64,000 bases of DNA, from assembly GCA_964624625.1 (NCBI GenBank), contig CAZUXW010000005.1, positions 4,681 through 68,680 on the forward strand, written 5' to 3'. Position 1 is the first letter of the stretch. Each line of letters starts with the position of its first letter. Source of the stretch: an uncultured bacterium (GTDB lineage Bacteria > Oederibacteriota > Muellerivitia > Muellerivitales > Muellerivitaceae). The notes under the pieces were generated by a model. It saw only the letters and a list, made by a program, of their open reading frames with translations, was not told the DNA's origin and did no database searches. The translations under genes and the position numbers were made by a program. This document shows positions 2 to 56,179 of this stretch, one piece after another.

Positions 2-3000
2 TTGAATCGTTCTTCAAAACTTGGTTTATTGTTATTCCTTTCCCTGCCTTGGCCGGTTCTCGCGGCCGTGACTCCCGATATCCAGGTGGACCAAACCGGG
101 TATGTTTCCACCGAGGCGAAGCTCGCGATGGTCACCAATTCCTCGGCCACCGGAGCCTTTTCAGTCCGGCAGGTTTCCGGTGGGGCGACTGTTTTTTCAG
201 GGACCTTGACCGCTGGGGTTTTGGACAATAACTCGGGGTTGACCATTCAACGGGCCGATTTCTCGTCGGTGACCGCCAGCGGCGACTATTACCTGGACGT
301 GGCAGGTCTGGGACAGAGCTATAACTTCTCGATTGATCCCAATGTTTTTGCCAAGGCCTTTTACCTGGCCACCCGATTTTATTACGGCCAGCGCTGCGGC
401 ACGGCGGTGGATTTGGCTCCCTCTTTCCCAGGCTATACCCATGGGGCTTGCCACACGGCGGACGGGACCTTTCACGCTTCCTCAGGGGTCACCGGAACCA
501 AGACCGCCACGAAGGGATGGCACGACGCGGGGGATTATGGAAAATACGTCGTCAACTCCGGGATTTCCACGGGGGAGTTGCTTTGGACTTATGAGTGGTT
601 CGCCAATCGGATCGGGACCGTCAATCTCCAAATACCGGAATCGGGAAACGGGACGCCGGATCTATTGAACGAGGCCCGGTGGAACCTGGAGTGGATGAGG
701 ACCATGCAGGACACGGACGGAGGAGTGTGGCATAAAGTCTCCACCGCCGCCTTCGACATTTTTGAGATGCCGGAAGTGGACAGCGCTGGAACCAGGTATA
801 TTATCGGCAAGGGCGCCGCGCCCTATAAGACCACTGCCGCCAGCGCGGATTTCGCCGCCGTGATGGCGATCGCGGCCAGGCTCTATCAACCCTATGACGC
901 CGCTTTTTCGGCGGCTTGCTCCCAGGCGGCGGTCACGGCCTGGGGATGGGTGCAGTTGAATCCCAATGTGACCTTTACGGCCAATCCCGCGGGGATTTCC
1001 ACCGGAACCTATGGCGACGGCACCGTGACCGACGAAAGGCTTTGGGCTTCGGCGGAGCTGTTCCGGACCACCGGGGGTGCCGCTTACAACACCTACTTCA
1101 CCGCAAACGCGGGGACATCGCCTTTGATCTCAACCACCGGCTACCCCCAGGATTGGGCCACGGTGAAAAACCTGGCTTTGTGGAGCTATTACTTTTCCTA
1201 CCTTTCGGGAAGGACGCCCTCGGCGGCGGTTTCCACGGCGATCCGGACGGACACCCTCGCGGCAGCCAACGCGGTCACGGTCCGCCAGGCTTCCGACGGC
1301 TATAGGGTCAGTTTATCCACCGCCCATTACATCTGGGGATCCAACGGGGGAGTGGGCAATTTCGGCGTCATGCTGTTAATGGCTAACGCCATGAGTCCGA
1401 GCAATAACTATGTTCAGGCGGTGTTGGACGATATCCATTATTTATTGGGCCGCAACGGCAACAAAATTTCCTTTGTCACCCGTTTGGGGACAACCTTCCC
1501 CCTTCATCCCCACCATCGGCCCAGCGGGTCGGATGCCAACACCCTGCCCTGGCCAGGAATGCTGGTCGGGGGCCCCAATCAAAGCACTTCCGGGGACGGG
1601 ATTACTCCCACTTCGCCTGGAACCAAGCCTGCCTTATGTTACGCCGATATCCAGGGCGCTTATGGTTCCAATGAGGAGGCCATCAATTGGAACGCCCCTT
1701 TGGTTTTTATCCTGGCCGCCAACGTGCCAGTGCCAGGGACGCCCACTCCCACACCCACGTTTTTTTTTACCATGACTCCGACCGTTACGGCCACTGGCAC
1801 CAAAACCGCGACCGCGACCCCCAGCCGGACCGCCACTCCGACCGCAAGCCCGACTCCAACCCTGAGCCCCAGTAACACGGCGACGAGGACGGCGACCCTT
1901 AGCCCTACCGTGACCTCCTCCAACAGTCCGACGAAAACCGCGACCTTTCCGCCGACAGGAACTCCTTCCTCCACCGCGACGTTAACCGCTTCCCGGACTC
2001 CTTCCTCCACGCCGTCCCCAACCGGGACTCCATCGTCCACTCCCTCAAGCTCGCCCACTTCCACCCCATCCAGGACGGCTTCCCCCACCGCCACCAACAG
2101 CCCTTCGCCGTCCCTCACCACCACGCCTACGAAAAGCCCAACCGCAACGGCATCCTTTTCTGTCACGGCCACCTTAACCTCGACGCCAACCCTTAGCGCC
2201 ACAGGAACTGCTTCCCGGACCCCCACCTCCAGCCCAACTCCGACGCCTTCACCAACGACATCGGTGACGCCAACCCCCACGGACACTCCCCTTATTACGG
2301 ATACTCCTTCCAACACGCCGACCAAGACCCTTACCTTCACTCCTTCTCCCTCCGCCACAAGGAGCCCCACCCCCACGGCAACGAATAGTCCCACGGCTTC
2401 ACCAACCAGCACCTCTTCGGACAGCCCTACTCAAACCCCCGCGGCGACCCTCACTCCGACATTAACTTCCACCAAGACCGCCAGCGTTTCGCCCACTTCC
2501 AGCCCCACCTTGACCCCCAGTTCCACTCCTTCCACCAGCCCCACTCACAGTCCCACGCCATCCGCGACGAAAACGGCCAGCCTCACACCAACCCCCACCG
2601 CGACTCGGACTCCCAGCTTGTCTCCGACCTCAACGCCTTCCGACAGTCCAACTTCCTCTCCCGTGAGCACCCCAAGCCAAACAGCCACCTGGTCCCCGAC
2701 CACAACCTTTACTCAAACCCCCACCCCCACACCTTCGAACCCTCCCACTTTTACCCCTACTGTTTTTTCGTCCGGCGTCAGCTTCTCGCCGGCTTATCCC
2801 AATCCTTCCAAGGATGGATCGCCGGTAGTGGTCGACATTAGGGCGCCTGGACCAGCGGTCATCCATTGGGCCGTCTTTACCACGGCCTTCCGTAAAATCA
2901 ACAAGGGGGATTTGGCGATGACGGACCTTGGCCTCTTCCGTTGGGACTTGACCGATAAGCGGGGGGATCCGGCTGCCAGGGGCATTTATTACATCCGCCT

Positions 3001-3058
3001 TGAAGTGTCGGGTCCTTTCGGGAAAGCCTCGAAAATCGTGAAGGTTTTGGTCCTGTAA
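2..3058 (+). CDS. Secreted glycoside hydrolase family 9 endoglucanase: N-terminal signal peptide, CelD_N Ig-like domain, GH9 catalytic domain, ~345-aa Pro/Thr/Ser linker, ~90-aa C-terminal FlgD-Ig / T9SS-type-A-like sorting domain. May start at the TTG at position 2 or upstream of the window.
   Basis: Signal-peptide-like LGLLLFLSLPWPVLAAV at the very start. GH9 signatures RFYYGQRCG and GWHDAGDYGKY. Linker of P/T/S repeats. C-terminal YPNPS...[13 protein letters not shown]...WDLTDKRGDPAARGIYYIRLEV...KIVKVLVL matches the Por_Secre_tail/FlgD_ig pattern. Confidence 0.8.
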   Translation: MNRSSKLGLLLFLSLPWPVLAAVTPDIQVDQTGYVSTEAKLAMVTNSSATGAFSVRQVSGGATVFSGTLTAGVLDNNSGLTIQRADFSSVTASGDYYLDVAGLGQSYNFSIDPNVFAKAFYLATRFYYGQRCGTAVDLAPSFPGYTHGACHTADGTFHASSGVTGTKTATKGWHDAGDYGKYVVNSGISTGELLWTYEWFANRIGTVNLQIPESGNGTPDLLNEARWNLEWMRTMQDTDGGVWHKVSTAAFDIFEMPEVDSAGTRYIIGKGAAPYKTTAASADFAAVMAIAARLYQPYDAAFSAACSQAAVTAWGWVQLNPNVTFTANPAGISTGTYGDGTVTDERLWASAELFRTTGGAAYNTYFTANAGTSPLISTTGYPQDWATVKNLALWSYYFSYLSGRTPSAAVSTAIRTDTLAAANAVTVRQASDGYRVSLSTAHYIWGSNGGVGNFGVMLLMANAMSPSNNYVQAVLDDIHYLLGRNGNKISFVTRLGTTFPLHPHHRPSGSDANTLPWPGMLVGGPNQSTSGDGITPTSPGTKPALCYADIQGAYGSNEEAINWNAPLVFILAANVPVPGTPTPTPTFFFTMTPTVTATGTKTATATPSRTATPTASPTPTLSPSNTATRTATLSPTVTSSNSPTKTATFPPTGTPSSTATLTASRTPSSTPSPTGTPSSTPSSSPTSTPSRTASPTATNSPSPSLTTTPTKSPTATASFSVTATLTSTPTLSATGTASRTPTSSPTPTPSPTTSVTPTPTDTPLITDTPSNTPTKTLTFTPSPSATRSPTPTATNSPTASPTSTSSDSPTQTPAATLTPTLTSTKTASVSPTSSPTLTPSSTPSTSPTHSPTPSATKTASLTPTPTATRTPSLSPTSTPSDSPTSSPVSTPSQTATWSPTTTFTQTPTPTPSNPPTFTPTVFSSGVSFSPAYPNPSKDGSPVVVDIRAPGPAVIHWAVFTTAFRKINKGDLAMTDLGLFRWDLTDKRGDPAARGIYYIRLEVSGPFGKASKIVKVLVL
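1733..2770 (+). repeat. Low-complexity Pro/Thr/Ser-rich linker-coding region (imperfect ACC/CCN/TCN codon repeats) inside the GH9 gene
   Basis: Translation is almost only P, T, S, A over ~345 aa. The antisense frame yields spurious V/G-rich ORFs (1660..2412 -). Confidence 0.7.
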
Positions 3059-4763: not shown

Positions 4764-5513
4764 TTACTTCACGAAAACAATATCATCCACCCTCAGGTCG
4801 TAATCCGCCTCGTGGAGTTCCGGAGAAAAGGCCATGTTTTTCACATCGGGAAAGGTGCGGGGATAGGAAGTGCCCCATGTAGGCTGATTGAAACGGTTCA
4901 GGGGAATCTTCACCAGGGTCCATTGCTCAGGGGCGATGAAGTCGGCTTGGAAATCGCAATAGTCCTGCACAACCGCCCTTCTTAAGGTCGTGATGTAATA
5001 TTTTCCATCGCCCTTGGCCGCGAACCAAAGTTCCTTGTAACCGTTCAAGTCCACGGTGCTTCCCTGGCTGTTCAGGTTCGCCTGGAGGTAGGCCCAGGTC
5101 CAAGGAGCCTCGCTGGGGCCCAAGTGGCCCTTCATGCCGGCGCAGAAACCGGGAGAGAGCGGCGACCCGCCCTCCAGCCGCTGGTAGGGATTCGGGAGAA
5201 GAATGGTTCCCATGTTGTTGTGGTCAAACTCAACCGACCAACCGCCGATGCCCGAGGCGGGGGAAGGGCCCTCGAAGTCGTCCAACCTCCAGGAATCCTT
5301 CGGGATTTTCACCGAGTTTTTGCTTTTTATTTCCACCGTGTCGCTCATGCCGAGCTTTTCCCTCAAGTCCTGTATTTCCCGCCTCAGGCGGTAAACTTCC
5401 GCCTTCAACTGGTCGTTGGACCATCCTTTGAGGGACCCTTCCTGGGGGGGGGAGTCGGCCCTCAGAAGGGTCGCGGTAAAAAAAACAGCGAGGAACAGGT
5501 GAAGCCTTTTCAT
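4764..5513 (-). CDS. Secreted protein with coiled-coil segment and C-terminal CIA30-like / carbohydrate-binding beta-sandwich domain
   Basis: Signal peptide MKRLHLFLAVFFTATLLRA. C-terminal ...DYCDFQADFIAPEQWTLVKIPLNRFNQPTWG...DDIVFVK is clearly paralogous to the C-terminus of the GH18 protein (8705..10651). GGGAGG RBS upstream of the ATG at 5513. Confidence 0.55.
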   Translation of the reverse strand: MKRLHLFLAVFFTATLLRADSPPQEGSLKGWSNDQLKAEVYRLRREIQDLREKLGMSDTVEIKSKNSVKIPKDSWRLDDFEGPSPASGIGGWSVEFDHNNMGTILLPNPYQRLEGGSPLSPGFCAGMKGHLGPSEAPWTWAYLQANLNSQGSTVDLNGYKELWFAAKGDGKYYITTLRRAVVQDYCDFQADFIAPEQWTLVKIPLNRFNQPTWGTSYPRTFPDVKNMAFSPELHEADYDLRVDDIVFVK

Positions 5514-5731
5514 AATGCCTCCCGGAAATTAAGGCTCAAACGATAAGACTATTAAACCACCAAGGGCGCCAAGGACGCCAAGAAAAGGGGGGCGATAAGT
5601 ATGATTTGGGCGAAAATGCCGGAAAAAGTTAATTTTTATTTGTCTTTCGGGGTGACCTTGGGGCCCTTGGTGGTTCAAGTGCCCCGGTTAATGCCCTTGT
5701 GGCCCCAGGCAAAAAGGGTTATCCTTTTTTT

Positions 5732-7363
5732 ATGGTCCTTTTCCAAAAAAGGTTTCAAAATTTTTCCTTTTCCCTCCTCGCCCTAATCGCACTGGCTCTG
5801 GGCTCTCCCGGCCTGGCCCAAACCCCAGCCTTGACCTTGGACCAAAAATGCCTCCAGGTTCTCAACCGTTTTACCTTCGGGCCCAAGCCGGGGGATTTGG
5901 AGCTGGTGCGCAAGATGGGGCTGGACGCCTTCCTGAGGGAACAGCTGAATCCGGACATGATCGATGATTCGGCCTGTGAGAAGGACTTGGATCCCTATTC
6001 CACGGTCAAGGAAAGCATCAATTCATTATTGATGGAATATCCCCAGCCGGGAGTCAATATCATGAGGCCGGACCTTCGGAATAAAGCCCTCTCGCCGGCC
6101 CAAAATGAGGAAGCCTACGGCCGTATCTTCAGCATGGTGAATGATTTGGCCGCGGCCAAGTTGACAAGGGCCTTGGTAAGCAGGCGCCAGTTATATGAGG
6201 TGATGGTGGATTTTTGGTTCAACCATTTCAACGTCGCCTTCGACAAGAATGAGGTGGAATGGTGCACCGGGACCTACGAAAGGGAGGTCATCAGGCCCAA
6301 TGCCCTGGGTAATTTCAAGGATCTTTTGATGGCCGTGGCCAAAAGCCCGGCCATGATGGTTTACCTGGATAATAACGACAATTTCGCCGACCCCAACTTC
6401 AAGCCTCTGGCCGATCCCGGCATGACCGGCAAAGGCGGTGGGGCCATGATGATGCAAAGCATGCCGGGCCAGGGCCTGCGCCTCAACGAAAATTACGCCA
6501 GGGAACTATTGGAGCTCCACACCCTGGGGGTGGACGGCGGCTACACCCAAAAGGACGTCGTGGAGACGGCCAGGGTATTCACCGGATGGTCGGTCGGAGG
6601 ACTCCAACCCGATTCGGCGCCGCAGCCCGTGGCCTTCAAGTTCAAGCCCTGGCACCATGACGGCAACCCCAAGTTTATCCTGGGCCATTCCTTCGGGCCC
6701 AACGACGGCGTCAAGGAGGGGGAAGCGGTGTTGGCCATGCTTTCCCGCCGCCCGGAAACAGCCAATAGGATTGCCTTCAAGCTATGCCAGAGGTTCGTGG
6801 CCGACAACCCACCGGCCGCCCTCGTGGAAAGGGTCGCGGCCAAGTTCCTGGAATCGGACTGCGACATCAAGGAAACCCTTCGGGTCATCCTCGATTCGCC
6901 CGAATTTTTCGACCCCCAATATTACCGGGCCAAGGTGAAAACGCCTTTCGAATATGTCGCCAGCGCCATGAGGGCGGTGGACGCGCACCCGGGCGATTGG
7001 AACCCCTCCATCCATGTGCTGGAATCCATGGGCCAGCCCCTTTATCGATGCGAGGCGCCGACCGGTTACCCCCAGACTGCCAACGCCTGGATAAGCTCCG
7101 CCTCGTTGCTGGGACGAACCAATTTCGCGGCAAAACTGTTCGACGCGACGGAGAAGGAGGGGCCGGTCGTAAACCTGGAGCCCTTCGAGAAGGGCGCCGC
7201 GGGGGGAGGCGGGAAGGCCGTTCTTCAAAATGTCTCGAGGATTCTCTTGAACGGCGAAATGTCCCCGAAAACGGAACAGGCGTTGTTGGCGGACCAACCT
7301 TCCCTGGATACCCGCAAATTGGCGGCTTTGGTATTGGCTTCGCCGGATTTTCAGAGGAGATGA
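5732..7363 (+). CDS. DUF1800 family protein (secreted; partner of DUF1501)
   Basis: Signal peptide LLALIALALGSPGLAQ. Large conserved DUF1800-like body. Immediately followed by a DUF1501 gene, the classic pairing. ATG at 5732 with AAAAAGGG RBS; the ORF is open from 5699. Confidence 0.65.
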   Translation: MVLFQKRFQNFSFSLLALIALALGSPGLAQTPALTLDQKCLQVLNRFTFGPKPGDLELVRKMGLDAFLREQLNPDMIDDSACEKDLDPYSTVKESINSLLMEYPQPGVNIMRPDLRNKALSPAQNEEAYGRIFSMVNDLAAAKLTRALVSRRQLYEVMVDFWFNHFNVAFDKNEVEWCTGTYEREVIRPNALGNFKDLLMAVAKSPAMMVYLDNNDNFADPNFKPLADPGMTGKGGGAMMMQSMPGQGLRLNENYARELLELHTLGVDGGYTQKDVVETARVFTGWSVGGLQPDSAPQPVAFKFKPWHHDGNPKFILGHSFGPNDGVKEGEAVLAMLSRRPETANRIAFKLCQRFVADNPPAALVERVAAKFLESDCDIKETLRVILDSPEFFDPQYYRAKVKTPFEYVASAMRAVDAHPGDWNPSIHVLESMGQPLYRCEAPTGYPQTANAWISSASLLGRTNFAAKLFDATEKEGPVVNLEPFEKGAAGGGGKAVLQNVSRILLNGEMSPKTEQALLADQPSLDTRKLAALVLASPDFQRR

Positions 7364-7418
7364 CCCTCCCCCGCCCCTTGGGGGGGAGGGAAGGTTTGCC
7401 AGACCTAAATGACAGGAG

Positions 7419-8651
7419 TTGAGCATGGATCCCCGATACAATCCCAAGTTGTCACGCAGGGACTTTTTTAAAATGACCGGCACCTTGGGCGCGGGACTGG
7501 CCCTTTGGTCCCTGCCGCCCTGGCTGCACGCGGCGGCGAAACTGGCGGCGGGCCCGAACTCGAATTCCAAGACCCTGGTCGTCCTTTTCCAACGGGGAGC
7601 CGCCGACGGTCTCAACACGGTCATTCCTTTCGCTGATCCACTGTACTTGAAAGCCAGGCCGACCATCGGGATCAAGTCCGGCATCCTGGACCTGGACGGC
7701 CGTTTCGGCTTCCATCCCTCACTGGCTCCCCTTTTGCCGTTGTGGAAGGAGGGCCATTTGGCCTTGGTCCACAGCGCCGGATCCCCGGATTCCAGCCGCT
7801 CCCATTTCGACGCGCAAGACTACATGGAAACGGGGACGCCTGGAGTGAAGGGAACCGCGGACGGATGGCTCAACCGGACAGCCGGGTCCTTCCCCAAGGC
7901 TGGACTTGACCCCTTGGCGGCCATCGCCATTTCCGCCAGGCCTCCCAGGATTCTCAGGGGGGAAATCCCCGTGACCTCCATGACCAGCCTGAAGGACTAC
8001 GCCTTCAGCCAGGGGCCCGAGGCGGCCAAGACCTTTGAGGACATGTACTCCGGTTCGGAAGGACTGTTGGGCAAGGCCGGACTCGCCACGGCCGATTCCA
8101 TCAAAAAACTGCAGTCGCTGCTCGGCGCAGCCCGGGGATCTTCCCAGGGGGGTTATGGAAACGGCTATCTAGGCCACGCCCTTTCGGACTTGGCCTCCAT
8201 CCTGAAATCGGGTGCCGGCGTGAAGGTGGCATTCGTGGATATCGGGGGATGGGACCATCACACGGGTGAAAGCTACAGGTTAGGGTCGCTCCTGGAGGAT
8301 TGGGGAAAGGGCCTTTCGGCTTTCTGGAGGGACTTGGGCGATAAGGCGGGGGATGTGGTGGTGGTTTCCATGACGGAGTTTGGGCGAACCGTCGCCGAGA
8401 ACGGGTCCCAAGGCACGGACCACGGCCACGGCAGCGTCATGTTCCTGTTGGGAGGCCCCGTTAAGGGGGGCAGGGTCTATGGCAAGTGGAGCGGGCTGGA
8501 GAGGGAAAATCTGAATGAGGGAAGGGATCTTCCCGTGAACACGGATTTCCGCCAGGTCCTTTGCGAGGCCTTGGGAAAACACCTGGGCGTCAAGAAACAA
8601 TCGGCGATTTTCCCCGGTTTCAGGCCTGGCCCTTCCTTGGGATGGATATAA
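7419..8651 (+). CDS. DUF1501 family (sulfatase-like) protein with twin-arginine (Tat) signal
   Basis: Tat motif SRRDFFKMTGTLGAGLALW. DIGGWDHHTGE motif typical of DUF1501. Confidence 0.75.
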   Translation: MSMDPRYNPKLSRRDFFKMTGTLGAGLALWSLPPWLHAAAKLAAGPNSNSKTLVVLFQRGAADGLNTVIPFADPLYLKARPTIGIKSGILDLDGRFGFHPSLAPLLPLWKEGHLALVHSAGSPDSSRSHFDAQDYMETGTPGVKGTADGWLNRTAGSFPKAGLDPLAAIAISARPPRILRGEIPVTSMTSLKDYAFSQGPEAAKTFEDMYSGSEGLLGKAGLATADSIKKLQSLLGAARGSSQGGYGNGYLGHALSDLASILKSGAGVKVAFVDIGGWDHHTGESYRLGSLLEDWGKGLSAFWRDLGDKAGDVVVVSMTEFGRTVAENGSQGTDHGHGSVMFLLGGPVKGGRVYGKWSGLERENLNEGRDLPVNTDFRQVLCEALGKHLGVKKQSAIFPGFRPGPSLGWI

Positions 8652-8704: not shown

Positions 8705-10651
8705 TTGAAAAGGTTCTCCTTCCCGCTATTTGTGCCGATTTTCTATTTTCTGTTTTCCATTCCCGCCATTGCCGGCCCCAACCTGGTTGTTCTCGGTTAT
8801 TCGGCAGTCTGGTTCGACGGCCTTTATCCGCCGGAAAGCTACAATTACGGCGCCCTCACCCACATCGCCAGGGCCTTTCTCACGCCGAAAGCCGACGGTT
8901 CCATAAAGGCGCCGGCGGGATTTTGGGACCCCGATTTGCAAAGGCTTGCCCAGGCCCATGGCGTGAAGTTATTGGCTTCCCTCGGGGGAGCGGCTCCCGA
9001 CGCGAGCCAATGGCTGGCACTGGCCCGCGACCCGAAAGCCTTAAAAGTTTTTTTTGATTCCTTGGAAAAATCCATTGGGGACCACCGTTATGACGGCGTG
9101 GATGTGGATTGGGAGCCTTCCGCCCTGACGGACCAGGATCAGGAAACCTATACCGCCTTTATGAAGGAGCTTCGGGCGCGGTTCCCTAAATGGATCATCA
9201 CCACGGCCTTGGGCGCCAGTGATTATTACGGCAAACATATCGCCTGGGCTGATGTCGCTCGCCAGGTGGATTTTATCAACCTCATGACCTATGACTTCGC
9301 GGGAGATTGGACCGGGCATTCGGGGTATAACGCGAATCTTTACGACTCGAAAAATTCAAAAGTGGCCACCGGATTGAGCGTTGATGAGGCGGTCAAGCGG
9401 TTGGAAGGAAAATACTCGGTGCCCGCCGATAAGATCGTCCTTGGATTGCCCTTTTACGGCCAGCACTTTTTTACCGCCCATATGGGGGATAATTTCACGG
9501 ATGCCGCCAGCAAAGTTGTCTCGGAGATCCAGTTTTATGAGATCGCCCCCCTGGAATTGGACGGGGACTGGAAATTCCGATGGGACGACGACGCGAAGGC
9601 CGATTATCTGGAAAGGGCGGTTGGAAACGGCGTCATTAGTTACGACGACAAGGGGTCTATTCGAATCAAATGCGACTACGCCAAAAACGAGGGGTTGAGG
9701 GGGGTCATGATTTGGAATTTGGGAGCGGACCTGGTTGGGTTGAAAACCCCGCTTTTGGATTCGGTTTGCGGGGCTTTTGGCGCGCGGTCCGTGACCCTGC
9801 CGGCTTCGGGGTTGGCTAGGGCCGCCGCGACTTTCGCGGGCATGGTCCAAGACGCCTTCGGGAAACTTGGGGGCCTCCATGAAAATCTGCTGAAGGCCGG
9901 AAAAATCGAGGAAGCCGGGAGGGCCGTGACTTGGAAGGGCCCGGAGCTCAGCGCGCAAGGCTCGAATCGGGCCGGGGTTTTAGGGAAAGAGATTTGGGAT
10001 TTGCAAAGAACCTTGAGCAAGCTCAATCGAAAACTGGAAGAGGGACAGGCGGTTCTCGATTCCATCCCCGTGACGGTGGTTCAGGGACGAAAAGTGGAAG
10101 CCGATGGCGCCCGGTTATTGGTGGATGATTTTGAGGGAGGGACCCCGGTCAACGCCTTGGGCGGGGCATGGACGGCCGATTTCGACCAGAATAAATTGGG
10201 GACGACGTTAAGTCCCAGCCCCTTCGCTCCCGCGGCCGGGGGGGCGAGGGGATCGGAAAAGTTCGCCGCCCATATCTTCGGCCATTTCGGCAAGAGCATG
10301 GCGCCCTGGCCCTACGCGGAGCTGACGGGGACCCTCAACCAGGCGGGAGCCGCGGCGGATATAAGCGGATTTAAAACCCTGAAATTTTGGGCAAAGGGGG
10401 ATGGCAAGGAATATTCGGCCCTGCTGGGCCGCGCGGCGGTGCGGGATTACTGCAATTTCCGGAGCGATTTCATGGCCCCCATCCCATGGACGGAGGTCGT
10501 TTTGAACCTCCAAGACTTCAAGCAGCCGACCTGGGGAAGGCAGATTCCCCTCAACCTCAGTGATGTTCTTTATATCGAGTTCACCCCATCCGCGTCGTTC
10601 AGTGATGAAGATTTCAACCTTTGGGTGGATGATGTTGTGTTGGGGAAATAG
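8705..10651 (+). CDS. Secreted GH18 chitinase-like glycoside hydrolase with C-terminal CIA30-like/CBM-like domain
   Basis: GH18 catalytic motif YDGVDVDWE. N-terminal signal peptide. C-terminal RDYCNFRSDFMAPIPWTEVVLNLQDFKQPTWG...LWVDDVVLGK is paralogous to 4764..5513. TTG start. Confidence 0.75.
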   Translation: MKRFSFPLFVPIFYFLFSIPAIAGPNLVVLGYSAVWFDGLYPPESYNYGALTHIARAFLTPKADGSIKAPAGFWDPDLQRLAQAHGVKLLASLGGAAPDASQWLALARDPKALKVFFDSLEKSIGDHRYDGVDVDWEPSALTDQDQETYTAFMKELRARFPKWIITTALGASDYYGKHIAWADVARQVDFINLMTYDFAGDWTGHSGYNANLYDSKNSKVATGLSVDEAVKRLEGKYSVPADKIVLGLPFYGQHFFTAHMGDNFTDAASKVVSEIQFYEIAPLELDGDWKFRWDDDAKADYLERAVGNGVISYDDKGSIRIKCDYAKNEGLRGVMIWNLGADLVGLKTPLLDSVCGAFGARSVTLPASGLARAAATFAGMVQDAFGKLGGLHENLLKAGKIEEAGRAVTWKGPELSAQGSNRAGVLGKEIWDLQRTLSKLNRKLEEGQAVLDSIPVTVVQGRKVEADGARLLVDDFEGGTPVNALGGAWTADFDQNKLGTTLSPSPFAPAAGGARGSEKFAAHIFGHFGKSMAPWPYAELTGTLNQAGAAADISGFKTLKFWAKGDGKEYSALLGRAAVRDYCNFRSDFMAPIPWTEVVLNLQDFKQPTWGRQIPLNLSDVLYIEFTPSASFSDEDFNLWVDDVVLGK

Positions 10652-11018: not shown

Positions 11019-14000
11019 GTGACCTTCAAAGTACCTTCTGGAACTCAATTTTCTCCCGGCTCATATCAATTTTCGCTTCTGCTTTCCCTTCTTTTCTTCT
11101 TTATTACATGCCTGCCATTGTCCGCCGCCACCGCCATCCCGGCCCAAGCCTGGAGCAGGGACATCAATGCCGGGGGCTATCAGGACGGGGCTCCGGTGGG
11201 GGGCTTTGGAGCGGGATCCTACACCTGGAATTTTGCCGGGGACTTCTATCTCAGCCGCCTCAATATCGCCGCGGCCCCGACGACCTGGACCAACAACAAT
11301 CCCTATACCCTCGACAACAACTGCCACTTTTATATGTACCAAAAGCCCTCGGGCCAGGCCGCTGTCACCACGAAGCTTAACGCCGCGTCTTTAGGATCCG
11401 GCCAAGCCAACTATTACTCCCTTTTTCCCAAGGCTTGGGTGGATTACTACGGTTCGAAGTTTCCCTGCAAGGCAAGGGTAACCCAATTCACCCCCCTGAT
11501 CCCCGGCGATTACACCAGAAGCAGTTTCCCGGAAGGCATTTACGAATGGGAATTCACGAATAACACCTGCCTCTCCACGGAGGTGGGCATCATGCTGACC
11601 TGGGACAACACCTTTGGGGGGGCCAGCGCGGCGGCCAGCGTCTCGTGGAGCCACACGGGTTTGGTCCTGACCAGGACCGGTGGAAACGCGACTTCCAAAT
11701 CCCAGGGTGAATTCACCCTTGCCGGCAGTTCCGGCGCCGGCGTGACCGTCACCTACCAATCGGCGGCCAGCGTGGCCGCGCTGGAAACTTCTTTCGGGGC
11801 CGCGGGGCTACTGGGCAATAGCGTCGGGAGCAATTCCATCGGCGGAATCGCCTTCAAGGTGACCCTGGCGCCTGGCCAAACCGTGAAAGTTCCCATCGTC
11901 CTGGCTTGGGACATTCCCCTTTGCCAGCCCGGCACCGGCGCCCAATGGTACCGGGAATACACGCGCACCTACGGAAGGACCGGACTCAATTCCTTCGGCA
12001 TCGCCAACGACGCCTTGGCCAATTACCCGAACTGGGAAAGTTCCATCGACAATTGGCAGGGCGCCATCCTAGGCGGGCCCTATCCCGATTGGTTCAAGCA
12101 GATGCTATTTAACGAACTTTATTATTACGCCATCGGGGGCACGATATGGGAGGCGGGGCAATACGGCTCCACCGCCTATGACGCGGGCCCTGACATGTTT
12201 TCCAGTTTGGAATGCTATGTCTACAGTTTTTACGGAACCTCGGACGTGCGCTTTTACAGTTCCTGGGCCCTGGCCGATAACTGGCCCAATATCGACAAGC
12301 AGGAAGTGGAGCAATTCAGCGACAGCGTGGTTGTGAGTCCCTCCCAGGCTTTGCCCAGGCCTGCCGCCATCGGCACCTGCGCCCACGATTTTGGCGGGCT
12401 TAATGACGTCTTCACCCGCTGGAACTCCTACACCTACCGCGATTCCACCACCTGGAAAGACCTCAACTCCAAACTGGTGCTGATGGTTTACCGGGATTGG
12501 GAGATGACGGGGAAGAGCGACGCGGCCTTCCTGAACTATTGCTGGCCCTCGGTGCAGGCCGCCATGACCAAAGTGCACGGCCAATGCGTTTCGGGAGGCG
12601 TTACTTACAACCTTCCCATCTCCAGCGGCATCGATCAGACCTACGACGACCTGGGCCTCACCGGCGAAACGGCCTATTGCGGAAGCCTGTACCTGGCGGC
12701 CTGCGAGGCGGCCAAGGCCATGGCCACCCAGCAGGGCAACGCGGCCTTGGCAACCACCTACAATTCCTGGCTGACCTTGGGACAAGCGGACTTCGAGGGA
12801 AATCTTTGGAACGCCGGGGGGAATTACTACAACATCGACACTGGAAGCGGCGCGGGGGGCGTGACCGGTGTGGCCCGCATCATGAGCGACCAGCTTTGCG
12901 GGCAATGGTACGCCAAGGCCTGCGGGTTGGCCGATGTGGTGCCAACCGCCCACGCGGTGAGCGCCTGGCAGGCGGTGCACGATAACAACTGGGCCAAGTT
13001 CGACGCCGGGGCCCATGGAGTGGTGAATGTCATGACCTCGGCGGGAGCCATTGATACTGGCACCCCCCAAAGCCAGGAAAACTGGGTGGGAACCAGCTGG
13101 GGAGCGGTGGCCGGCATGATCCAACAGGGGATGTTCACCCAGGCTGTTTCCATCGGGAACAGCCTCTACAACACCATTTGGAACACGGGACAGATGTGGT
13201 TCCGGACCCCGGAGGCCTGGCGGACGGGGCTGGGGGGAGTCCGCGCGGCGTACTATATGAGGGCAAACTGTATTTGGGCGGCGAAACACGCCTATGAGGT
13301 AAATTCACCCTGCGGAGGGGCCTCCTGCACGCCCATTCCATCCCTCACCCCTACCTCCACGCCGACCTTGAATTGCCCCACGACGAATACGGCCACGCCA
13401 ACCCCAACCTACACCATTCCCTCCACCGCGACCTGGACCCCCACCCCAACCGCGACCAGGACGGCAACGTCCACACCCTCCCCTAGCGCAACCAGGTCGC
13501 CTTCCCTTACCCCTTCTCCCACGGCAACCAACAGCTTGACCAGGACCGCGACCTCCACCCCCACTAAAAGCCCGACGGCCACCGCGACGGTTTCCCCTTC
13601 GATGACCGCGACGGCTTCGTCTTCGCCAACCAAATCACCTACTTCCACTCAAACTCGAACCGCCACCTCGAGTTCTACCCCAACGGCCACGATCACTTCC
13701 ACGCCATCCAACACCCCGCTTATTACCAATACGGCCAGCCGGACCCCCACCGTTACCCCGACCGATTCAACGACGCCGACTTCTTCGGCTACGCCTGCCG
13801 CTACGGCTTCACCGACCCAGACCGCCACGAGGACCGCAACTTCAACGGCATCGATAACGGCTACGCCATCCCTGACCGCTTCGGCTTCGTCTACGTCGAC
13901 CAGGACCGCAACCTCAACGGCCTCCGCGACCCCTTCCCGGACCCCCAGCCCAAGTCCCACCGCGACCGCCACCCTATCGGCGACTAACTCACCCAGCCCA

Positions 14001-14651
14001 ACGGCAACCAATTCAACGACCCCGACTTCCTCGGCGACGCCCACCGCTACAGCCTCCGCTTCACCCACAAGAACCGCGGCGGCCACCCTTTCACCCTCTT
14101 CGACGAATACCTTCACAGCTTCCGCGACCCCCAGTCCCACGTCCACCGCGACGCCCTCGTTTACGCCGACTCCGTCAGCTACACTCACCACTACGGCTTC
14201 GCCATCTCCCACGAAGACCCCGACCTCAACCGCTTCGAAAACCCCGACAGCAACTCCCACTGTGACGCCTTCCCTTACTCCGACGAGGACCCCGACCCTG
14301 ACCGCTACTACATCCGCGACCAACACGCCCACCCAAACCTTTACCTCCACCGCCGCAACGACGGAAGTGGCCATCTCCTATCCCTATCCCAACCCATCCG
14401 ATGGGCTGATTCCGGTAACGGTGGAAATGAGGACTCCCGGCCAGGCCCAAATCCATTGGGCCGTCTTTACCACGGCCTTCCGGAAAATTCGGGAAGGGGA
14501 TAACACAATCAACGGCCTGGGAATGGTCACCTGGGACCTGAAGGACAAAAAGGGAACACCGGTCGCGGCGGGCTTGTATTACCTGAGGGTCGAGGTCAAA
14601 GGCGATTTTGGGACCACCGGGAAGATCCTGAAGGTTTTAGTGAGGCCTTAA
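11019..14651 (+). CDS. Secreted GH116-like (GBA2 / non-lysosomal glucosylceramidase-type, DUF608 (alpha/alpha)6 barrel) glycoside hydrolase with ~350-aa Pro/Thr/Ser linker and C-terminal FlgD-Ig / T9SS-type-A-like sorting domain
   Basis: Signal peptide. Motifs [42 protein letters not shown] and [15 protein letters not shown] recall GH116/GBA2 (recollection only). PT linker ~aa 768-1118. C-terminal YPYPNPSDG...[13 protein letters not shown]...YYLRVEV...KILKVLVRP. Start codon uncertain (GTG at 11019). Confidence 0.7.
13320..14370 (+). repeat. Low-complexity Pro/Thr/Ser/Ala-rich linker-coding region inside the GH116-like gene
   Basis: Translation is almost only T/P/S/A. Antisense spurious V/G/A-rich ORFs (13409..13648 -, 13649..14374 -). 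Confidence 0.7.
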
Positions 14652-14837
14652 ACCAAAATCTTGTTTCGCCGCCAAGACACCAAGGCACAAAGAAAAAATA
14701 AGAGGGTTCGTTTTGATTTGGATCCTTTTCGAAGGGAGTGTAAAAGGCCCTCCTTGGTGTCTTTGTGTCTTGGTGGTAACCCGCCTTTGTTTATTTCTTC
14801 GCAGATAAAATCCCTTTCTTTTCGATATAATGCCCCC

Positions 14838-15851
14838 ATGAAAAAGAACACCCCCCTACGCATCGGCATCATCGGCCTGGGCCAAATCGCCGAAAAAGCC
14901 CACCTGCCTGGCTACAGCAAGGCCGAAGGCTGCCAAGTGACGGCCCTCTACTCCTCCCGGGAAGCCCACGCCAAACAAATCGCCACCCATTACGGCGTTC
15001 CCCATATTTACAAGGACTGGAACCGCCTGCTGGAGTCCGACCATGTGGACGCGGTTTCCATCTGTACCCCCAATTACACCCATCTTCCCATCGCCTTGAA
15101 GGCTTTCCAGGAAGGGAAGCACGTGATGCTGGAAAAGCCCATGGCTTTGAACCAGATCGAGGGAATGAAGATTATCCAGGCGGCCAAGAAAAGCAAAAGA
15201 ACCTTGATGGTGCACCACAACATGAGGTTTGACCCCGCAGTTCGGACGGCGGAAAAACTGCTCCGGAAAAATTCGATTGGCGAGGTGTTCGCTTTCAAAT
15301 GCTCCTTGACCCACCGGGGCCCCCAAGCTTGGAGTCCGAAAGCCGATTGGTTCTTCAACAAGAAGGAAGCGGGTGGCGGCGCTTTGATGGATCTAGGCCC
15401 CCATGTCTTTGACAGTTTGAGGTTCCTGTTAGGCGACGACGCCTTGATGGCGGGGGCTGTGGCGGCGCAAGCGCCTGGCGCCTCCTCCAAACAGGGGGAA
15501 ATCCACTGTAACTGTCTGCTCCGTTTCAAACGGGGAGCCGTAGGATCGATCACCGTGGGCTGGGCCGATACGGTTTACCAGAACCGGTTTTATTTTTACG
15601 GCACCAAGGGTTCCCTTTCCTTAAACCTGGCCAAAGGCGACCCCATCACCGTGGAATATCGGAACCAGCCGGGAAAGACCTTCCCGCCCCTGGCGAAGGA
15701 CAGCTTTTATCCGACCATATACGAGCATTTTGTCCATTGCGTCAGGCACCAAAAAACCCCATGGGTTTCCGGTGAGGAGGGTTTGAAAACACTGGAGCTG
15801 ATTGACGCGGGCTACCGACTGATTCAGCATGCCGATTCCGCGGCTATTTGA
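14838..15851 (+). CDS. Gfo/Idh/MocA family NAD(P)-dependent oxidoreductase
   Basis: N-terminal Rossmann motif RIGIIGLGQIAEKAHLPGY and the EKP motif (HVMLEKPMA). The 14661..14837 extension of the ORF is an inverted-repeat-rich leader, not coding. Confidence 0.75.
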   Translation: MKKNTPLRIGIIGLGQIAEKAHLPGYSKAEGCQVTALYSSREAHAKQIATHYGVPHIYKDWNRLLESDHVDAVSICTPNYTHLPIALKAFQEGKHVMLEKPMALNQIEGMKIIQAAKKSKRTLMVHHNMRFDPAVRTAEKLLRKNSIGEVFAFKCSLTHRGPQAWSPKADWFFNKKEAGGGALMDLGPHVFDSLRFLLGDDALMAGAVAAQAPGASSKQGEIHCNCLLRFKRGAVGSITVGWADTVYQNRFYFYGTKGSLSLNLAKGDPITVEYRNQPGKTFPPLAKDSFYPTIYEHFVHCVRHQKTPWVSGEEGLKTLELIDAGYRLIQHADSAAI

Positions 15852-17244: not shown

Positions 17245-17354
17245 CGGCGCCCTCCGCCCTCCGCAACCGACACAAAAAATAGTTGCCATCCTCGGACGTC
17301 GAAAAAGGGTTTTCGGGGGCGGAGGGCGCGGGGCGGACAGCGGGTTTAACCTCC

Positions 17355-17383
17355 TTGACACTCGCTGGGGTGGTACCTACACT
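17355..17383 (+). promoter_or_regulatory. Sigma-70-like promoter upstream of trxA (TTGACA-17-TACACT)
   Basis: TTGACA at 17355-17360 and TACACT at 17378-17383, about 70 nt upstream of the trxA ATG. Confidence 0.35.
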
Positions 17384-17453
17384 TATCCAAGACATAAGGA
17401 AAAAATGTAACTTTTGACCTGTTTGAGGGTTACTTACTTAACGGAGGAAGACG

Positions 17454-17783: not shown

Positions 17784-17784
17784 T

Positions 17785-18333: not shown

Positions 18334-18443
18334 CCTCTTCCTTTCAAAATTCCGCAGGTTAAGCAGGGTTGGTCCGAGAACTGCCCTCGTTGATTCATCG
18401 GTTTCGGCCCCCAAGCTTCCTTTCCCGAGGGGACAGTCATTGC

Positions 18444-18473: not shown

Positions 18474-18515
18474 GCCTCGGCTTTTACACCCTAACTCCCT
18501 GTTGAAAGGCTTTCA

Positions 18516-52461: not shown

Positions 52462-54612
52462 GTGACGGCAACGGTGCGAAATAACTACCTCAATAACAAT
52501 ATTTTATCCCCCGGCTACAGGCGGTTTTTGGGAGGCCTGGCTTTGGGTCTCCAGGTTTTTCTAATGTCCGCGGCTTGGGCCAACGCCCAGTCCGGCATCG
52601 TGACGAGGCCGGTTTTCGACCGTAAGGAGACCTTCGGGATCGGGCCCAGGGCCATGGGGATGGGCGGAGCCTTCACCGCGGTGGCGGATGATTCCTCGGC
52701 GGTCTATTGGAACGTGGCGGGGTTGGCCCAGCTCTCGGCCTATGAAATATCCATTTCCAGCGCGCCGGTTTATTTCCGGGATAAGGTGGGCACGGCGGAC
52801 GCCTTCGGGTTTCCCTGGTTCGCGTCCCTGCAGTTCATGATGCCGATCGCCAATGACAATACCTTCGGCATCTCCTATTTCCGGCCCTTTCATCCCCAGA
52901 GGGATTTTTACGCGGGGGACACCACCATGTCCCAGGGCAACCGGGAAGAGGGAAGCTACTTTCAAAACCCGAGCTTCCAGCAGGACGAATTGATATTGTC
53001 CTACGCGGCGAGATTCTCGTCGGTCAAGAATTTTTCCATCGGCGTCAACGTGAAGCGGATCACGAACGACCCCTATTACATCCGTTTTTTGGGAGATTCC
53101 CAATCCGAGACCCTGATCGCCCAACAGTTACAAAGCCCCGTCCGGGTGGTGGGCTTTGGCGTGGACTTGGGGCTTTTGTACCGAATCCCCATCACCAAGT
53201 ATTCGGAGGAGTTCCGGATCGGATTGTCCTTGAAGGACATGGTGACCACCGCCACCTACTCGAACGGTTTCAAATTGACCGATCCCGGCGCCAACATTTT
53301 ATTCGACGAGGGAACCGGCGATATCCCCGTCGCCCCGGAAATTACCCTGGGCCTCGCCTACAAGAATAATTTTCTCTTCAAGGTCCGCAACATCACGGCT
53401 TTTGATTTCGACCAGATATCCTCGCCCAATGTTTCCGACGCGGAAAATAAGATCCTCCGGTTTGGAACGGAGTTTTGGCTTTTCAAGGACGTACTGGGCC
53501 TTAGGACCGGCTATTCGACCTTCTTAAGCCGTCCCGGGTTCATTCATCTGGGGTTAAGCGTCCGGGCCCTCAACGGCGATTTCCAAACGGACGTGGCCTA
53601 CATCATGCCGGTCGCTCCCTCGGCCAGCGTCTCGGAAGGATCCCAGACCGGCTACATCAATACTGGCGGGATTAACTTCGAGCCTTTCCACATCGGGATT
53701 TCCTATCGGTTCGGCGGCGGGGAAGAAGTTCCACCGGCGAAGGTTAAAGCCTTTGTCCGTCCTGCTTCCTTCACGCCTTCCCAGGGCGAGAAGGCCGGTT
53801 TTTATCTCGACACCACTGAGGATGTTTCCATCAACCGTTGGAGCGTCTTGATCTATGACTCCTCCAATCACCTGGTGAGGGGATTGCGCGGAAAAGGCTC
53901 CCCCCCGACGAAACTGCTTTGGAGCGGGGAGAATGACCAGTACGAGCCCTTGCCTCCCGGTGTTTATACTTGGGCCTTTCAAGTCCTCGACCAATTGGAC
54001 CATGTCGGCTCCACCCCGGTGCAAACGGTCGAGATTTTAGGGCCTTCCTCGGCGGACACCCTGAAGGATCCCGGCAAATTGCTGGCGATTCGCCAGCAGC
54101 AAGCGGAACTTTTGGCCCAAGAACGCCAACAGTTGACGGCCCTGGCCCAAGAAAACCTCAAAAAACTGCTGGGTGTCCCGGAAGCGACCCCCACGACAGC
54201 CAACGCGGCCCAGACCCCCGTGGAAGCCAATGGCAACACCTTGGTACCGGAAGCCGGTACGGTTCCCGCCTTGGGCTTTAATAACGTGGCAAAAGACCAG
54301 GTTTTAAACACCCACTTCGATAAAAACCCCGAGGGGGACACGATTATCGTGGTGAGCTACAGGTCAAACCTCACTTTTGTGCCCTATCTTTACCAGGAAG
54401 CGGCGGAAGTGATCAAAACAAGCGTAAATTCGGTCGGAACAGGTTTAAAAGGGATATCAACTCGTGTATATTATGGCAAAAATGAGCTTACCCTGGAGAC
54501 AACGACGCAGGCGGCGGCGAACTTTGCCTCGGGGAAAATTGACCAGATGAAATTATTGCAATTGTCCGATATTAAAATAAACGGTGCGAAGGTAGGCCCG
54601 AATGGTTACTAG
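52462..54612 (+). CDS. Outer-membrane beta-barrel protein with PorV/PorQ/FadL-like N-terminal signature, fused to a FlgD-Ig-like domain and a Gln-rich C-terminal region
   Basis: Signal peptide. IGPRAMGMGGAFTAVADDSSAVYWNVAGLA (PorV-family hallmark). Alternating amphipathic beta-strands over ~400 aa. Then SVLIYDSSNHLVRGL...LLWSGENDQYEPLPPGVYTWAFQV (FlgD_ig-like). Confidence 0.55.
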   Translation: MTATVRNNYLNNNILSPGYRRFLGGLALGLQVFLMSAAWANAQSGIVTRPVFDRKETFGIGPRAMGMGGAFTAVADDSSAVYWNVAGLAQLSAYEISISSAPVYFRDKVGTADAFGFPWFASLQFMMPIANDNTFGISYFRPFHPQRDFYAGDTTMSQGNREEGSYFQNPSFQQDELILSYAARFSSVKNFSIGVNVKRITNDPYYIRFLGDSQSETLIAQQLQSPVRVVGFGVDLGLLYRIPITKYSEEFRIGLSLKDMVTTATYSNGFKLTDPGANILFDEGTGDIPVAPEITLGLAYKNNFLFKVRNITAFDFDQISSPNVSDAENKILRFGTEFWLFKDVLGLRTGYSTFLSRPGFIHLGLSVRALNGDFQTDVAYIMPVAPSASVSEGSQTGYINTGGINFEPFHIGISYRFGGGEEVPPAKVKAFVRPASFTPSQGEKAGFYLDTTEDVSINRWSVLIYDSSNHLVRGLRGKGSPPTKLLWSGENDQYEPLPPGVYTWAFQVLDQLDHVGSTPVQTVEILGPSSADTLKDPGKLLAIRQQQAELLAQERQQLTALAQENLKKLLGVPEATPTTANAAQTPVEANGNTLVPEAGTVPALGFNNVAKDQVLNTHFDKNPEGDTIIVVSYRSNLTFVPYLYQEAAEVIKTSVNSVGTGLKGISTRVYYGKNELTLETTTQAAANFASGKIDQMKLLQLSDIKINGAKVGPNGY

Positions 54613-56179
54613 AGTCCTAGTAGCGACCCTTTTACTTTTTTCGCTTGGCGCATCCAAGGGTTTCGCTGCGTTTGATAAAGGGGGAGTTTCGGGTTTAGGG
54701 GCCCGTCCTTTGGGTATGGGCGGGGCCTTCTCCACTATCGCGGATACGGGCGACGCCATATTTTATAATCCCGCGGGATTGGTCCAGGTATTAAGGCCTG
54801 AGGTTTCCGGCATGGGCGCTGTTCTTTTAAACGGAAAAGAAGACTTGTTTGACTTGGCCTATGTCCAGCCCTTTGGGGATCAAATGGCTTGGGCCCTGGC
54901 GACCCAGCAGTTGTTCTTCACCGATGGTTCCGAAAATGAGAGGATTTATTACGGAACCTTTGCCGCCCCATTGGCCATTGATAAATCGATATCCTTTGGC
55001 TTGAACATCAAGCTTTTCACCGTTGATTCGGCGACCCAGCCTGGGCAACAGGCCAGCGGCATCGGGTTGGATATGGGTTTTCTCTACCACATCCCCATCC
55101 TCAACCCCCGTTACGGAAAACAGCTTAATATCGGCTTGTCCGCGGAGGATTTGGACACCAAAATCCGCTACCAAGCCGGCAATGAGGATCCCATCCCCTT
55201 GAGGGTCCGCGGCGGGTTTAGCTATCAATTTACCGACGACTTGGTGACGGCGTTTGAGTTTTCCGATTTCAACGACCCGAACCTGGGCTCCCATCACACT
55301 TTGCTCTTGGCCGGAATTGAAGGCTGGTTTTTTGAGGATCAATTGGGATTGCGGACGGGATATACGGGCTTCCAAACCTTGGACGGCCAATTTACCGCCG
55401 GTATCAGCTACAGGTCCAAGACCTGGGGGATCGACTACGCCTACATCGGCCATGCCCAATTCCTCGGTTCTTCCCACCGCATCTCGGCCAATTGGCGTTT
55501 TGGCGATTCCTTCCTAGGCAAGGTCAAGAGCTTCATCCCGGAGGGCGTGACGGCTTATGTGGAGGGGGATATTATTACCTTGCGGTGGAATAACTCACCC
55601 TCGCTTTCCCTGGCTGGTTACAACGTTTATTTCAGCAAAACCACCGGGAGCGGCTATGTCAAGATCAACCAAAAGGCCGTTAAGGCCAACTATTATTCCC
55701 TCCGGGGCCTCGAGAAGAACACCAAGTATTATTTCGTGGTGAGTTCCGTCACCAACACGATTCCTCCGGTGGAGAGCCAATTTTCCCGCGAGATTTACGC
55801 GGGAACGACCGCCGCTCCCGGCGCTCCCGTGGTGGTCCAGAGCGATGTTCAAAATGAGGGCGTGATCGATATCGCCAAACAAGTGGGGATGGCCGGATTC
55901 CCGGATCCCGCCAAGAATAACCTGAAGGGTTATAATATTTACGTTTCCGAGGTATCGGGAGGCCGCGAGGACAAGATCAACGTCCAACCCCTCGCTAATT
56001 TGCCGACCTACCTGGTCCGGAAGCTGAAGGTTGGCCAGAAATATTTCTTTACCTTTACCTCGGTTGGATTGGATGGATCCGAAAGCGCCCATTCCAAGGA
56101 GTCGGGCGTGGTAGCCTTGCCATTCAGCGCGGTGATGCAGCCGGCCGGTACAAGTGTTAATCAACCTGCGACCAAATAA
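54602..56179 (+). CDS. Outer-membrane beta-barrel protein (PorV/PorQ/FadL-like signature) with two C-terminal fibronectin type III domains
   Basis: Signal peptide. LGARPLGMGGAFSTIADTGDAIFYNPAGL. Barrel ~300 aa. FN3 repeats (ITLRWNNSPSLSLAGYNVYFSK...KYYFVVSSV; LKGYNIYVSE...KYFFTFTSV). Confidence 0.55.
   Translation: MVTRVLVATLLLFSLGASKGFAAFDKGGVSGLGARPLGMGGAFSTIADTGDAIFYNPAGLVQVLRPEVSGMGAVLLNGKEDLFDLAYVQPFGDQMAWALATQQLFFTDGSENERIYYGTFAAPLAIDKSISFGLNIKLFTVDSATQPGQQASGIGLDMGFLYHIPILNPRYGKQLNIGLSAEDLDTKIRYQAGNEDPIPLRVRGGFSYQFTDDLVTAFEFSDFNDPNLGSHHTLLLAGIEGWFFEDQLGLRTGYTGFQTLDGQFTAGISYRSKTWGIDYAYIGHAQFLGSSHRISANWRFGDSFLGKVKSFIPEGVTAYVEGDIITLRWNNSPSLSLAGYNVYFSKTTGSGYVKINQKAVKANYYSLRGLEKNTKYYFVVSSVTNTIPPVESQFSREIYAGTTAAPGAPVVVQSDVQNEGVIDIAKQVGMAGFPDPAKNNLKGYNIYVSEVSGGREDKINVQPLANLPTYLVRKLKVGQKYFFTFTSVGLDGSESAHSKESGVVALPFSAVMQPAGTSVNQPATK

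Follow-up and report, generated by a model that had tools for sequence, protein, structure and literature searches.

The 64,000-nucleotide stretch of DNA analyzed here (contig CAZUXW010000005.1, hereafter the window) belongs to an uncultured soil or peat bacterium of candidate phylum FCPU426 and carries two genes for glycoside hydrolases (GH), one of family GH9 and one of family GH116 (Table 1). Both products begin with a signal peptide, continue with their catalytic modules and a long linker in which Pro, Thr and Ser account for 68–73% of residues (PT linker), and end in a C-terminal domain (CTD) of about 93 amino acids (aa), a tail that we relate below to secretion signals. The two CTDs share 57% identity at the protein level and 63% at the DNA level over 264 aligned nucleotides (nt), confirming the original prediction that a common C-terminal domain closes two PT-linker glycoside hydrolases. 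No third copy was found in the window with hidden Markov models (HMMs) built from 2 and from 97 sequences. A FlgD-like insert in the first of two barrel proteins (52462..54612) was considered as a further copy and rejected, since it does not match the CTD HMMs. Signal peptides, here and in relatives, were judged by eye from hydrophobic, signal-peptide-like N-termini, and the true start codon of the GH9 gene possibly lies just 5' of the window edge.

Table 1. Genes, modules and other features discussed in the text; positions are counted from the first nucleotide of the window. pLDDT, predicted local distance difference test.
Feature	Position	Strand	Basis or remark
GH9 endoglucanase-type gene	2..3058	+	Pfam Glyco_hydro_9 E 8.7e-85, CelD_N E 3.5e-19; translation
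GH9 modules: signal peptide, CelD_N Ig-like (aa 24-104), GH9 catalytic (aa 116-571), PT/S linker, CTD
GH9 Pro/Thr/Ser linker, 352 aa	1721..2776	+	P 20%, T 33%, S 20%
GH9 CTD, 'FTTAFRK' class	2777..3055 (aa 926-1018)	+	runs to stop codon; FlgD_ig 12.4 bits
32-nt core, copy 1	2861..2892	+	within GH9 CTD
GH116 gene	11019..14651	+	Pfam DUF608/GH116 E 2.8e-87, Glyco_hydr_116N E 1.4e-45; translation
GH116 modules: signal peptide, N-terminal domain (aa 57-339), catalytic region (aa 394-754), PT/S linker, CTD
GH116 Pro/Thr/Ser/Ala-rich linker, 357 aa	13296..14366	+
GH116 CTD, 'FTTAFRK' class	14367..14648 (aa 1117-1210)	+	TIGR04183 17.7 bits, FlgD_ig 18.4 bits; AlphaFold pLDDT 95.5
32-nt core, copy 2	14451..14482	+	within GH116 CTD
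716-aa outer-membrane protein, N-terminal PorV/PorQ-like barrel (aa 59-384)	52462..54612	+	NF033709 73.7 bits, E 2e-20; flagellar synteny
525-aa protein, PorV/PorQ-like barrel (aa 33-299) and fn3 domains	54602..56179	+	NF033709 83.6 bits, E 2e-23

A scan of 185,579 species genomes with the pattern [VM]FT[TAL]AFRK[IV] returned 95 confirmed relatives of the tail, nearly all in metagenome-assembled genomes (MAGs) named candidate division FCPU426, with a few labelled Firestonebacteria, 'proteobacterium' or 'bacterium'. HMM search of the loci around these relatives gave 115 terminal domains in 24 species genomes, where the 1–13 copies per genome represent a lower bound. Nearly all of these domains end 0–3 aa before the stop codon of host proteins 600–1,800 aa long, and the architecture is constant: a signal peptide, a cargo module, a PT linker of 100–950 aa and the CTD. 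Glycoside hydrolases dominate the cargo, with GH5 and GH74-like enzymes (9 each), GH116 (8), GH18 (7), GH9 (6) and GH8 (4), as well as GH28, GH16, GH64, GH43 and GH12; expansins, peptidases of families S8 and M12, malectin domains and beta-propellers are also represented. Tandem arrays are frequent, with at least two CTD genes in 26 of 76 loci. Among 1.84 billion representative proteins, the CTD was matched by 970 at E ≤ 1e-10, a number that rises to 50,587 at E ≤ 1e-3, and in the best 150 matches the domain was always at the C-terminus. A database search with a single sequence yielded just 7 fragments, so that relatives had to be collected with an alignment. A second class of FCPU426 proteins contains two or three internal FlgD_ig repeats spaced by about 100 aa, often with DUF11, followed by a canonical-looking terminal tail (for example at L042 6612-10733, L050 1-3078, L051 6604-11253 and L073 6331-9225, L numbers denoting loci and contigs compared with the window). 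One fold therefore serves both as a repeat and as a terminal tag.

The secretion system known as type IX (T9SS) and its C-terminal signals are regarded as a hallmark of Bacteroidota and other phyla of the Fibrobacterota-Chlorobiota-Bacteroidota (FCB) superphylum. As in the type A CTDs of this system (Porphyromonas gingivalis PorU, PorZ and RgpB, Tannerella forsythia mirolase), the FCPU426 tail is a beta-sandwich of about 80–95 aa located at the very C-terminus of proteins exported through Sec, opens with a 'YPNP' strand, keeps a conserved Lys in its last strand and is carried by many paralogous cargo proteins per genome, in genomes that also encode barrels of the PorV/PorQ family. Type A CTDs are also its best profile and fold matches. 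A profile of 97 family sequences searched against PDB matched the PorU CTD (E 1e-4), the PorZ CTD (E 0.014), the F. johnsoniae (Flavobacterium) substrate CTDs 8glk/8glj and the mirolase CTD, and FlgD at just E 1.4. TIGR04183 was matched by 56 of the 97 members at E ≤ 1e-3 (best 2.9e-7), and individual members matched the tails of PorU (26 members), a T9SS-dependent M6 protease (24) and PorZ (11), or FlgD (13). The window copies, too, had weak matches to the PorU and PorZ tails and to the tail of a T9SS-dependent protease, and about 24 of 120 database relatives carry a precomputed PF18962 assignment, some a PF13860 one. An AlphaFold model built on a 125-sequence alignment is a beta-sandwich (pLDDT 95.5) for which the top Foldseek match was the PorU CTD 6za2 (E 3e-5, template-modelling (TM) score 0.70–0.72), followed lower down by generic Fn3/Ig domains, FlgD (3osv, 3c12) and PorZ (5m11). 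Conservation is focused on one loop and the last strand, both functional in T9SS signals, and the nearly invariant Lys of 'K-[IV]-L-[VI]-x-R' corresponds to the 'motif C-t.' of T9SS CTDs (PMC11285876).

The Ig-like domain of FlgD, the flagellar hook cap (PF13860), shares with the tail its fold class, a 'W-D-x-x-D-x-x-G ... G-x-Y' pattern and weak HMM matches of 12–18 bits. Unlike that domain, the tail stays below the gathering cut-off, is closer to PorU than to FlgD in the profile comparison (1e-4 vs 1.4) and sits at the end of enzymes without any hook-cap context. Profiles and predicted structure thus support homology of the tail to the T9SS type A / FlgD-Ig class, apparently nearer to T9SS type A than to FlgD. 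On balance, we consider it reasonably probable that the tail is a lineage-specific 'FTTAFRK' variant of this class of CTD and marks the extracellular degradative enzymes of FCPU426 for sorting at the outer membrane, anchoring at the surface, or both.

Several observations weigh against this assignment. Searches of the two window tails with TIGR04183, PF18962 and PF13860, as proposed with the original prediction, gave only sub-threshold results: TIGR04183 (cut-off 23 bits) matched the GH116 tail weakly and the GH9 tail not at all, FlgD_ig (PF13860, cut-off 27 bits) matched both weakly and at profile positions 48-76 only, and PF18962 was not reported for either at E ≤ 10. The Ig-like fold is generic, with Fn3 domains of C5a-peptidase and FlgD also scoring in Foldseek. 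In the profile alignment, the invariant Phe of 'TAFRK' lies opposite the Gly of PorU 'FTGRL' in loop beta3-beta4, so that V-F-T-T-A-F-R-K takes the place of the 'iyD..Gr.v' loop of type A CTDs; RgpB export depends on a conserved Gly where strand beta4 begins (motif L-beta3-beta4), and the substitution G699R at this Gly stops RgpB secretion in P. gingivalis (PMC11285876). The FCPU426 tail also differs from type A CTDs in always being preceded by its long PT linker and in belonging to a host outside the FCB superphylum, where T9SS genes have been stated to be absent (PMC11285876). Neither the window nor FCPU426 loci totalling about 0.84 Mb, which amounts to <1% of each genome, contained an open reading frame (ORF) of SprA size; the large ORFs of those loci code only for repeat proteins and for an S53 peptidase that carries NHL propellers. 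Nor was PorU/PorZ-like cargo present among 84 CTD proteins and 8 proteins with 'canonical' tails, or any T9SS core gene among about 28 window ORFs scanned, most of 29–48 kb being excluded and PorK/L/M/N not being specifically screened. PorV/PorQ genes occur in 2 of 78 loci, which is near chance frequency, and the PorV-like barrel pair of the window is fixed in a flagellar cluster and is therefore weak evidence for a T9SS.

With respect to the replaced Gly, paralogues from the same genomes with 'iYT.aGe.V' and 'vwNasGqfV' motifs bridge the FTTAFRK class to canonical tails, the Gly being kept in the canonical ones. Some of these paralogues reach the TIGR04183 or PF13860 cut-offs, and some paralogues with internal repeats pass the latter at 33–54 bits.

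If FCPU426 possessed a full canonical T9SS, with SprA, the PorK/L/M/N motor and ring, a PorU sortase and a PorV shuttle, the tail would be a divergent type A signal cut by PorU and the cargo would end up on a surface glycolipid. All sequence and fold ties of the tail to type A CTDs would fit this scenario, as would the presence of TIGR04183-positive cargo and NF033709-positive PorV/PorQ proteins in the same genomes and a range of cargo like that of cellulolytic and chitinolytic Bacteroidota. We nevertheless regard it as rather unlikely, given the replaced Gly of the recognition loop, the lack of SprA-sized ORFs and of PorU/PorZ-like cargo in the sequence covered, the reported absence of core genes outside FCB phyla and the flagellar setting of the window barrels. 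A T9SS is previously undescribed in FCPU426, and a literature search on T9SS or PorV in FCPU426, Goldbacteria and Elusimicrobia found nothing relevant.

Alternatively, the tail could be a passive Ig-like module without a role in secretion that serves as a spacer, in adhesion or in binding to carbohydrate or the cell wall, with export taking another route such as type II secretion. The generic fold, a porphyran-binding carbohydrate-binding module (CBM) and Fn3 domains among the Foldseek matches, the sub-threshold scores of the window copies for T9SS models, the internal FlgD_ig-type repeats of other FCPU426 proteins and the lack of a recognizable CBM in the window GH9 and GH116 (Pfam scan) would all be compatible with such a role. 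It is made less likely by the strictly terminal position of the tail, seen in over 100 proteins and without exception in the 150 best database matches, by the unrelated nature of its cargo, which includes proteases and propellers, and by a motif pattern centered on the elements that function in T9SS signals. Moreover, the best sequence matches are secretion tails and not CBMs, and some cargo proteins carry a CBM3 besides the tail. Taken together, we find a purely passive module improbable.

For the favored reading, a sorting or anchoring tag related to T9SS type A CTDs, the following route can be proposed. The N-terminal signal peptide would carry the enzyme through Sec over the inner membrane. 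The folded CTD would then be read at the outer membrane through the loop V-F-T-T-A-F-R-K and the last strand K-x-L-V-x-R, likely by barrels of the PorV/PorQ family, after which the enzyme would be exposed at the surface or released. The linker of about 355 aa could form a long, probably glycosylated stalk that keeps the catalytic module off the cell. The contact between CTD and barrel and the sorting or anchoring role are inferred; the analysis itself shows what the tail is homologous to and how it folds, that its position is strictly C-terminal, which cargo it is attached to and that CTD genes adjoin PorV/PorQ barrel genes in relatives.

This adjacency was observed in more than one lineage. 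In loci L073 and L026, from two other FCPU426 genomes, genes for 446-aa proteins combining a PorV/PorQ barrel with tetratricopeptide repeats (TPR) score above the cut-off of 90 bits for NF033709, the PorV/PorQ family model (L073:2387-3727, 118.6 bits; L026:3603-4943 on the minus strand, 109.3 bits), without a match at the cut-offs of the PorV or PorQ equivalog models. In both loci the barrel gene directly follows a pectate lyase-malectin gene with a TIGR04183-positive tail (28 vs 23 bits) and also adjoins FTTAFRK-CTD genes. The whole forms a module (L026 3603-8013, minus strand; L073 9-3727, plus strand) of an ECF (extracytoplasmic function) sigma factor, an anti-sigma factor with a periplasmic FlgD-Ig-like domain, the pectate lyase-malectin protein and the PorV/PorQ-TPR protein. 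The protein encoded 5' of the barrel gene had been considered as a piece of machinery and was rejected, since pectate lyase plus malectin makes it cargo. Similarly, a CTD-protein gene followed by a PorV-type barrel gene is a recurrent pairing in Elusimicrobia. The weight of the PorV/PorQ link lies solely in this operon-like adjacency to CTD genes and in its recurrence across lineages. Searches of the PorV-like proteins against PDB with phmmer gave only TPR/fn3 matches or none, a method too insensitive to serve as a negative test.

A precedent for anchoring a CTD on a barrel is provided by the type B CTDs, which are anchored on PorP/SprF barrels in the PG1035-PorP and SprB-SprF pairs (PMC9143113). 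As in these pairs, a CTD gene adjoins a gene for a FadL/PorV-class barrel in L073, L026, L084 and L087, and by analogy the CTD may be held non-covalently at the surface on its partner barrel. In contrast to type B systems, the FCPU426 tails are type A-like, and the barrels, in many cases TPR fusions, resemble PorV/PorQ.

With regard to cargo, the closest parallels are the cellulolytic and chitinolytic organisms whose glycoside hydrolases, including GH9 enzymes, end in an Ig-like signal, such as Cytophaga hutchinsonii (Cel9A), Flavobacterium johnsoniae (ChiA) and Fibrobacter succinogenes (PMC11285876). These organisms share with FCPU426 a cell-associated, polysaccharide-degrading secretome, but their machinery is experimentally defined and they glide or are without flagella, whereas the FCPU426 lineage is flagellated. 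NCBI taxonomy places candidate phylum FCPU426 outside the FCB group. In 16S comparisons it clusters with Goldbacteria, which are flagellated and cellulolytic and have Firestonebacteria and Elusimicrobia as their closest neighbours in genome trees (PMC7031533). The flagellar genes of the window, including those for L and P rings, bear out the original prediction of a flagellated organism distinct from Bacteroidia. A T9SS-type tail with an invariant motif of its own thus occurs on cellulases, chitinases, xyloglucanases, pectinases and proteases in a flagellated non-FCB phylum linked to cellulose degradation. This raises the questions of which translocon serves FCPU426 and whether CTD/PorV-type sorting is older than, or has spread beyond, the canonical T9SS.

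The two barrels encoded at 52–56 kb of the window had been taken as a sign of T9SS-like secretion. Their PorV-like nature was supported by HMM and fold, with the qualification that both score below the NF033709 cut-off and reach only 23 and 30 bits for NF033710, the PorV model with a cut-off of 250. The AlphaFold model of the second barrel (pLDDT 90) was closest to F. johnsoniae PorV (8gl6_F and 6h3i_F, E 1e-12, TM 0.71–0.75), followed by FadL and TodX. The implied link to T9SS fared less well. The pair lies between FapA/FlhB-C-like genes and FlgF/FlgG/FlgA/FlgH/FlgI, an arrangement also found in a 77%-identical FCPU426 species, and is probably not linked to the CTD system; it may rather represent a flagellar accessory of the outer membrane whose building block is a PorV-type barrel. 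The same form of the pair, in which one barrel has a long C-terminal extension and the other two fn3 domains, is seen in L079 and L092. In the distant relative L083 (GCA_975905565.1) the pair adjoins DUF11/CLIPPER proteins and a 1831-aa FlgD_ig protein.

An operon-like cluster in Elusimicrobia (L087 1-11852, ENA ERZ4902932 k141_225066, and L088; GCA_001800455.1) encodes a 5,954-aa giant surface protein, a 132-aa FlgD_ig/Por_Secre_tail-like protein, a PorP/SprF-like barrel with TPR, a 473-aa FliG_C-like protein, MotA, a pair of MotB/OmpA-like proteins, a protein of 692 aa with a tail that matches the PorZ CTD (E 4e-15) and a PorV/PorQ barrel (184.9 bits vs 90). It looks like T9SS attachment-type parts joined to a flagellar-type stator; Elusimicrobia have been reported to be without flagellar genes (PMC7031533). 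Because this operon joins a giant surface protein and PorP/PorZ/PorQ-like parts with FliG-like, MotA and MotB proteins, and because the FCPU426 PorV-like pair is fixed inside a flagellar cluster, there are hints that FCPU426 and neighbours such as Elusimicrobia might possess a CTD/PorV-PorQ sorting and anchoring pathway related to T9SS and independent of the canonical FCB machinery. FTTAFRK would then be a private code, and the barrels would be coupled to flagellar-type parts in place of PorLM. We offer this as an unlikely, speculative scenario; if true, the pathway would be a sister system or an evolutionary precursor of T9SS outside the FCB superphylum.

Within the two window CTDs, a 32-nt core, ATCCATTGGGCCGTCTTTACCACGGCCTTCCG, is present in exact form at both predicted sites (Table 1) and, with up to 3 mismatches allowed, matches nowhere else in the window (shuffle expectation 0). 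The core encodes an 11-residue peptide, the most conserved of the CTD family, which comprises the V-F-T-T-A-F-R-K segment and aligns to strand beta3, loop beta3-beta4 and strand beta4 of T9SS CTDs. The two CTDs share 51 identical residues that are degenerate; 27 of them have identical codons, and 9 of these are consecutive inside the core. A run of at least 32 nt has a P of 0.00055 under independent codon draws from window usage and of 0.004 when same/different-codon labels are permuted among the identical residues, so that the identity goes beyond what amino-acid conservation alone predicts.

Strong constraint and recent gene conversion had both been suggested as causes. As to the former, the excess in run length remains, but the idea of a nucleotide constraint acting across the family was discarded, since motif codon use among 96 members is as variable as at other conserved sites. 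A recent short-tract conversion between the GH9 and GH116 genes would account for 9 codons in a row being the same where background identity is 63% (P 0.0005–0.004) and for the unusual uniformity of the closest 10-sequence subclade, in which codon homozygosity at four-fold sites is 0.53–0.75 in the core vs 0.18–0.47 elsewhere. On the other hand, saturation of the flanks extends as far as the core edges and the same codons are found in other MAGs, namely in the GH9 orthologue L005, the GH116 orthologue L001 and, with one change, L002. The identity is therefore older than this genome, and we doubt strongly that it is the footprint of a recent event. Old or recurrent micro-conversion, or local selection on codons within the subclade, is possible.

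PT linkers upset gene calling, and for this reason most sequences that match the tail in databases are orphan 'proteins' some 90 aa long. The antisense strand of linker DNA gives long spurious ORFs, in the window at 1660..2412 (250 aa), 12105..13289 and 13649..14374, all on the minus strand, and likewise in L089 (13102-13854) and L090 (1140-1865 and 2225-3409). Public gene calls take these antisense ORFs over the real genes: GH9 is uncalled in the source contig, and GH116 was cut to 344 aa in another sample. In L001, a related ENA contig, gene calling split the GH116 gene into products of 988 and 80 aa. The tail thus explains such mis-called genes in metagenomes, where broken predictions leave the short orphans behind, and provides an easily used sequence marker of the extracellular enzymes that FCPU426 encodes.

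Between the two CTD genes lie a small secreted protein (4764-5513, minus strand) and a GH18 chitinase-type enzyme (8705-10651, plus strand) that have a common CIA30-type C-terminal domain and lack the CTD; the tail is therefore not used by every secreted glycoside hydrolase of the locus. A DUF1800/DUF1501 pair is found at 5699-8651 between the CIA30-domain genes. Upstream of the window, the source contig contains small ORFs only, without a recorded Pfam match. Positions 11019-25027 are syntenic with L001, in the order GH116-CTD, GFO/IDH/MocA oxidoreductase, DUF8575/DUF6782 metallopeptidase-like protein, thioredoxin, SecD, SecF, YggS-like protein and P5C reductase and, further along, purine nucleoside phosphorylase and a gene of the IF-2B family (MtnA-like). 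Finally, public contigs identical to the window exist, among them ENA ERZ27245396 k141_1114267 (90,185 bp).

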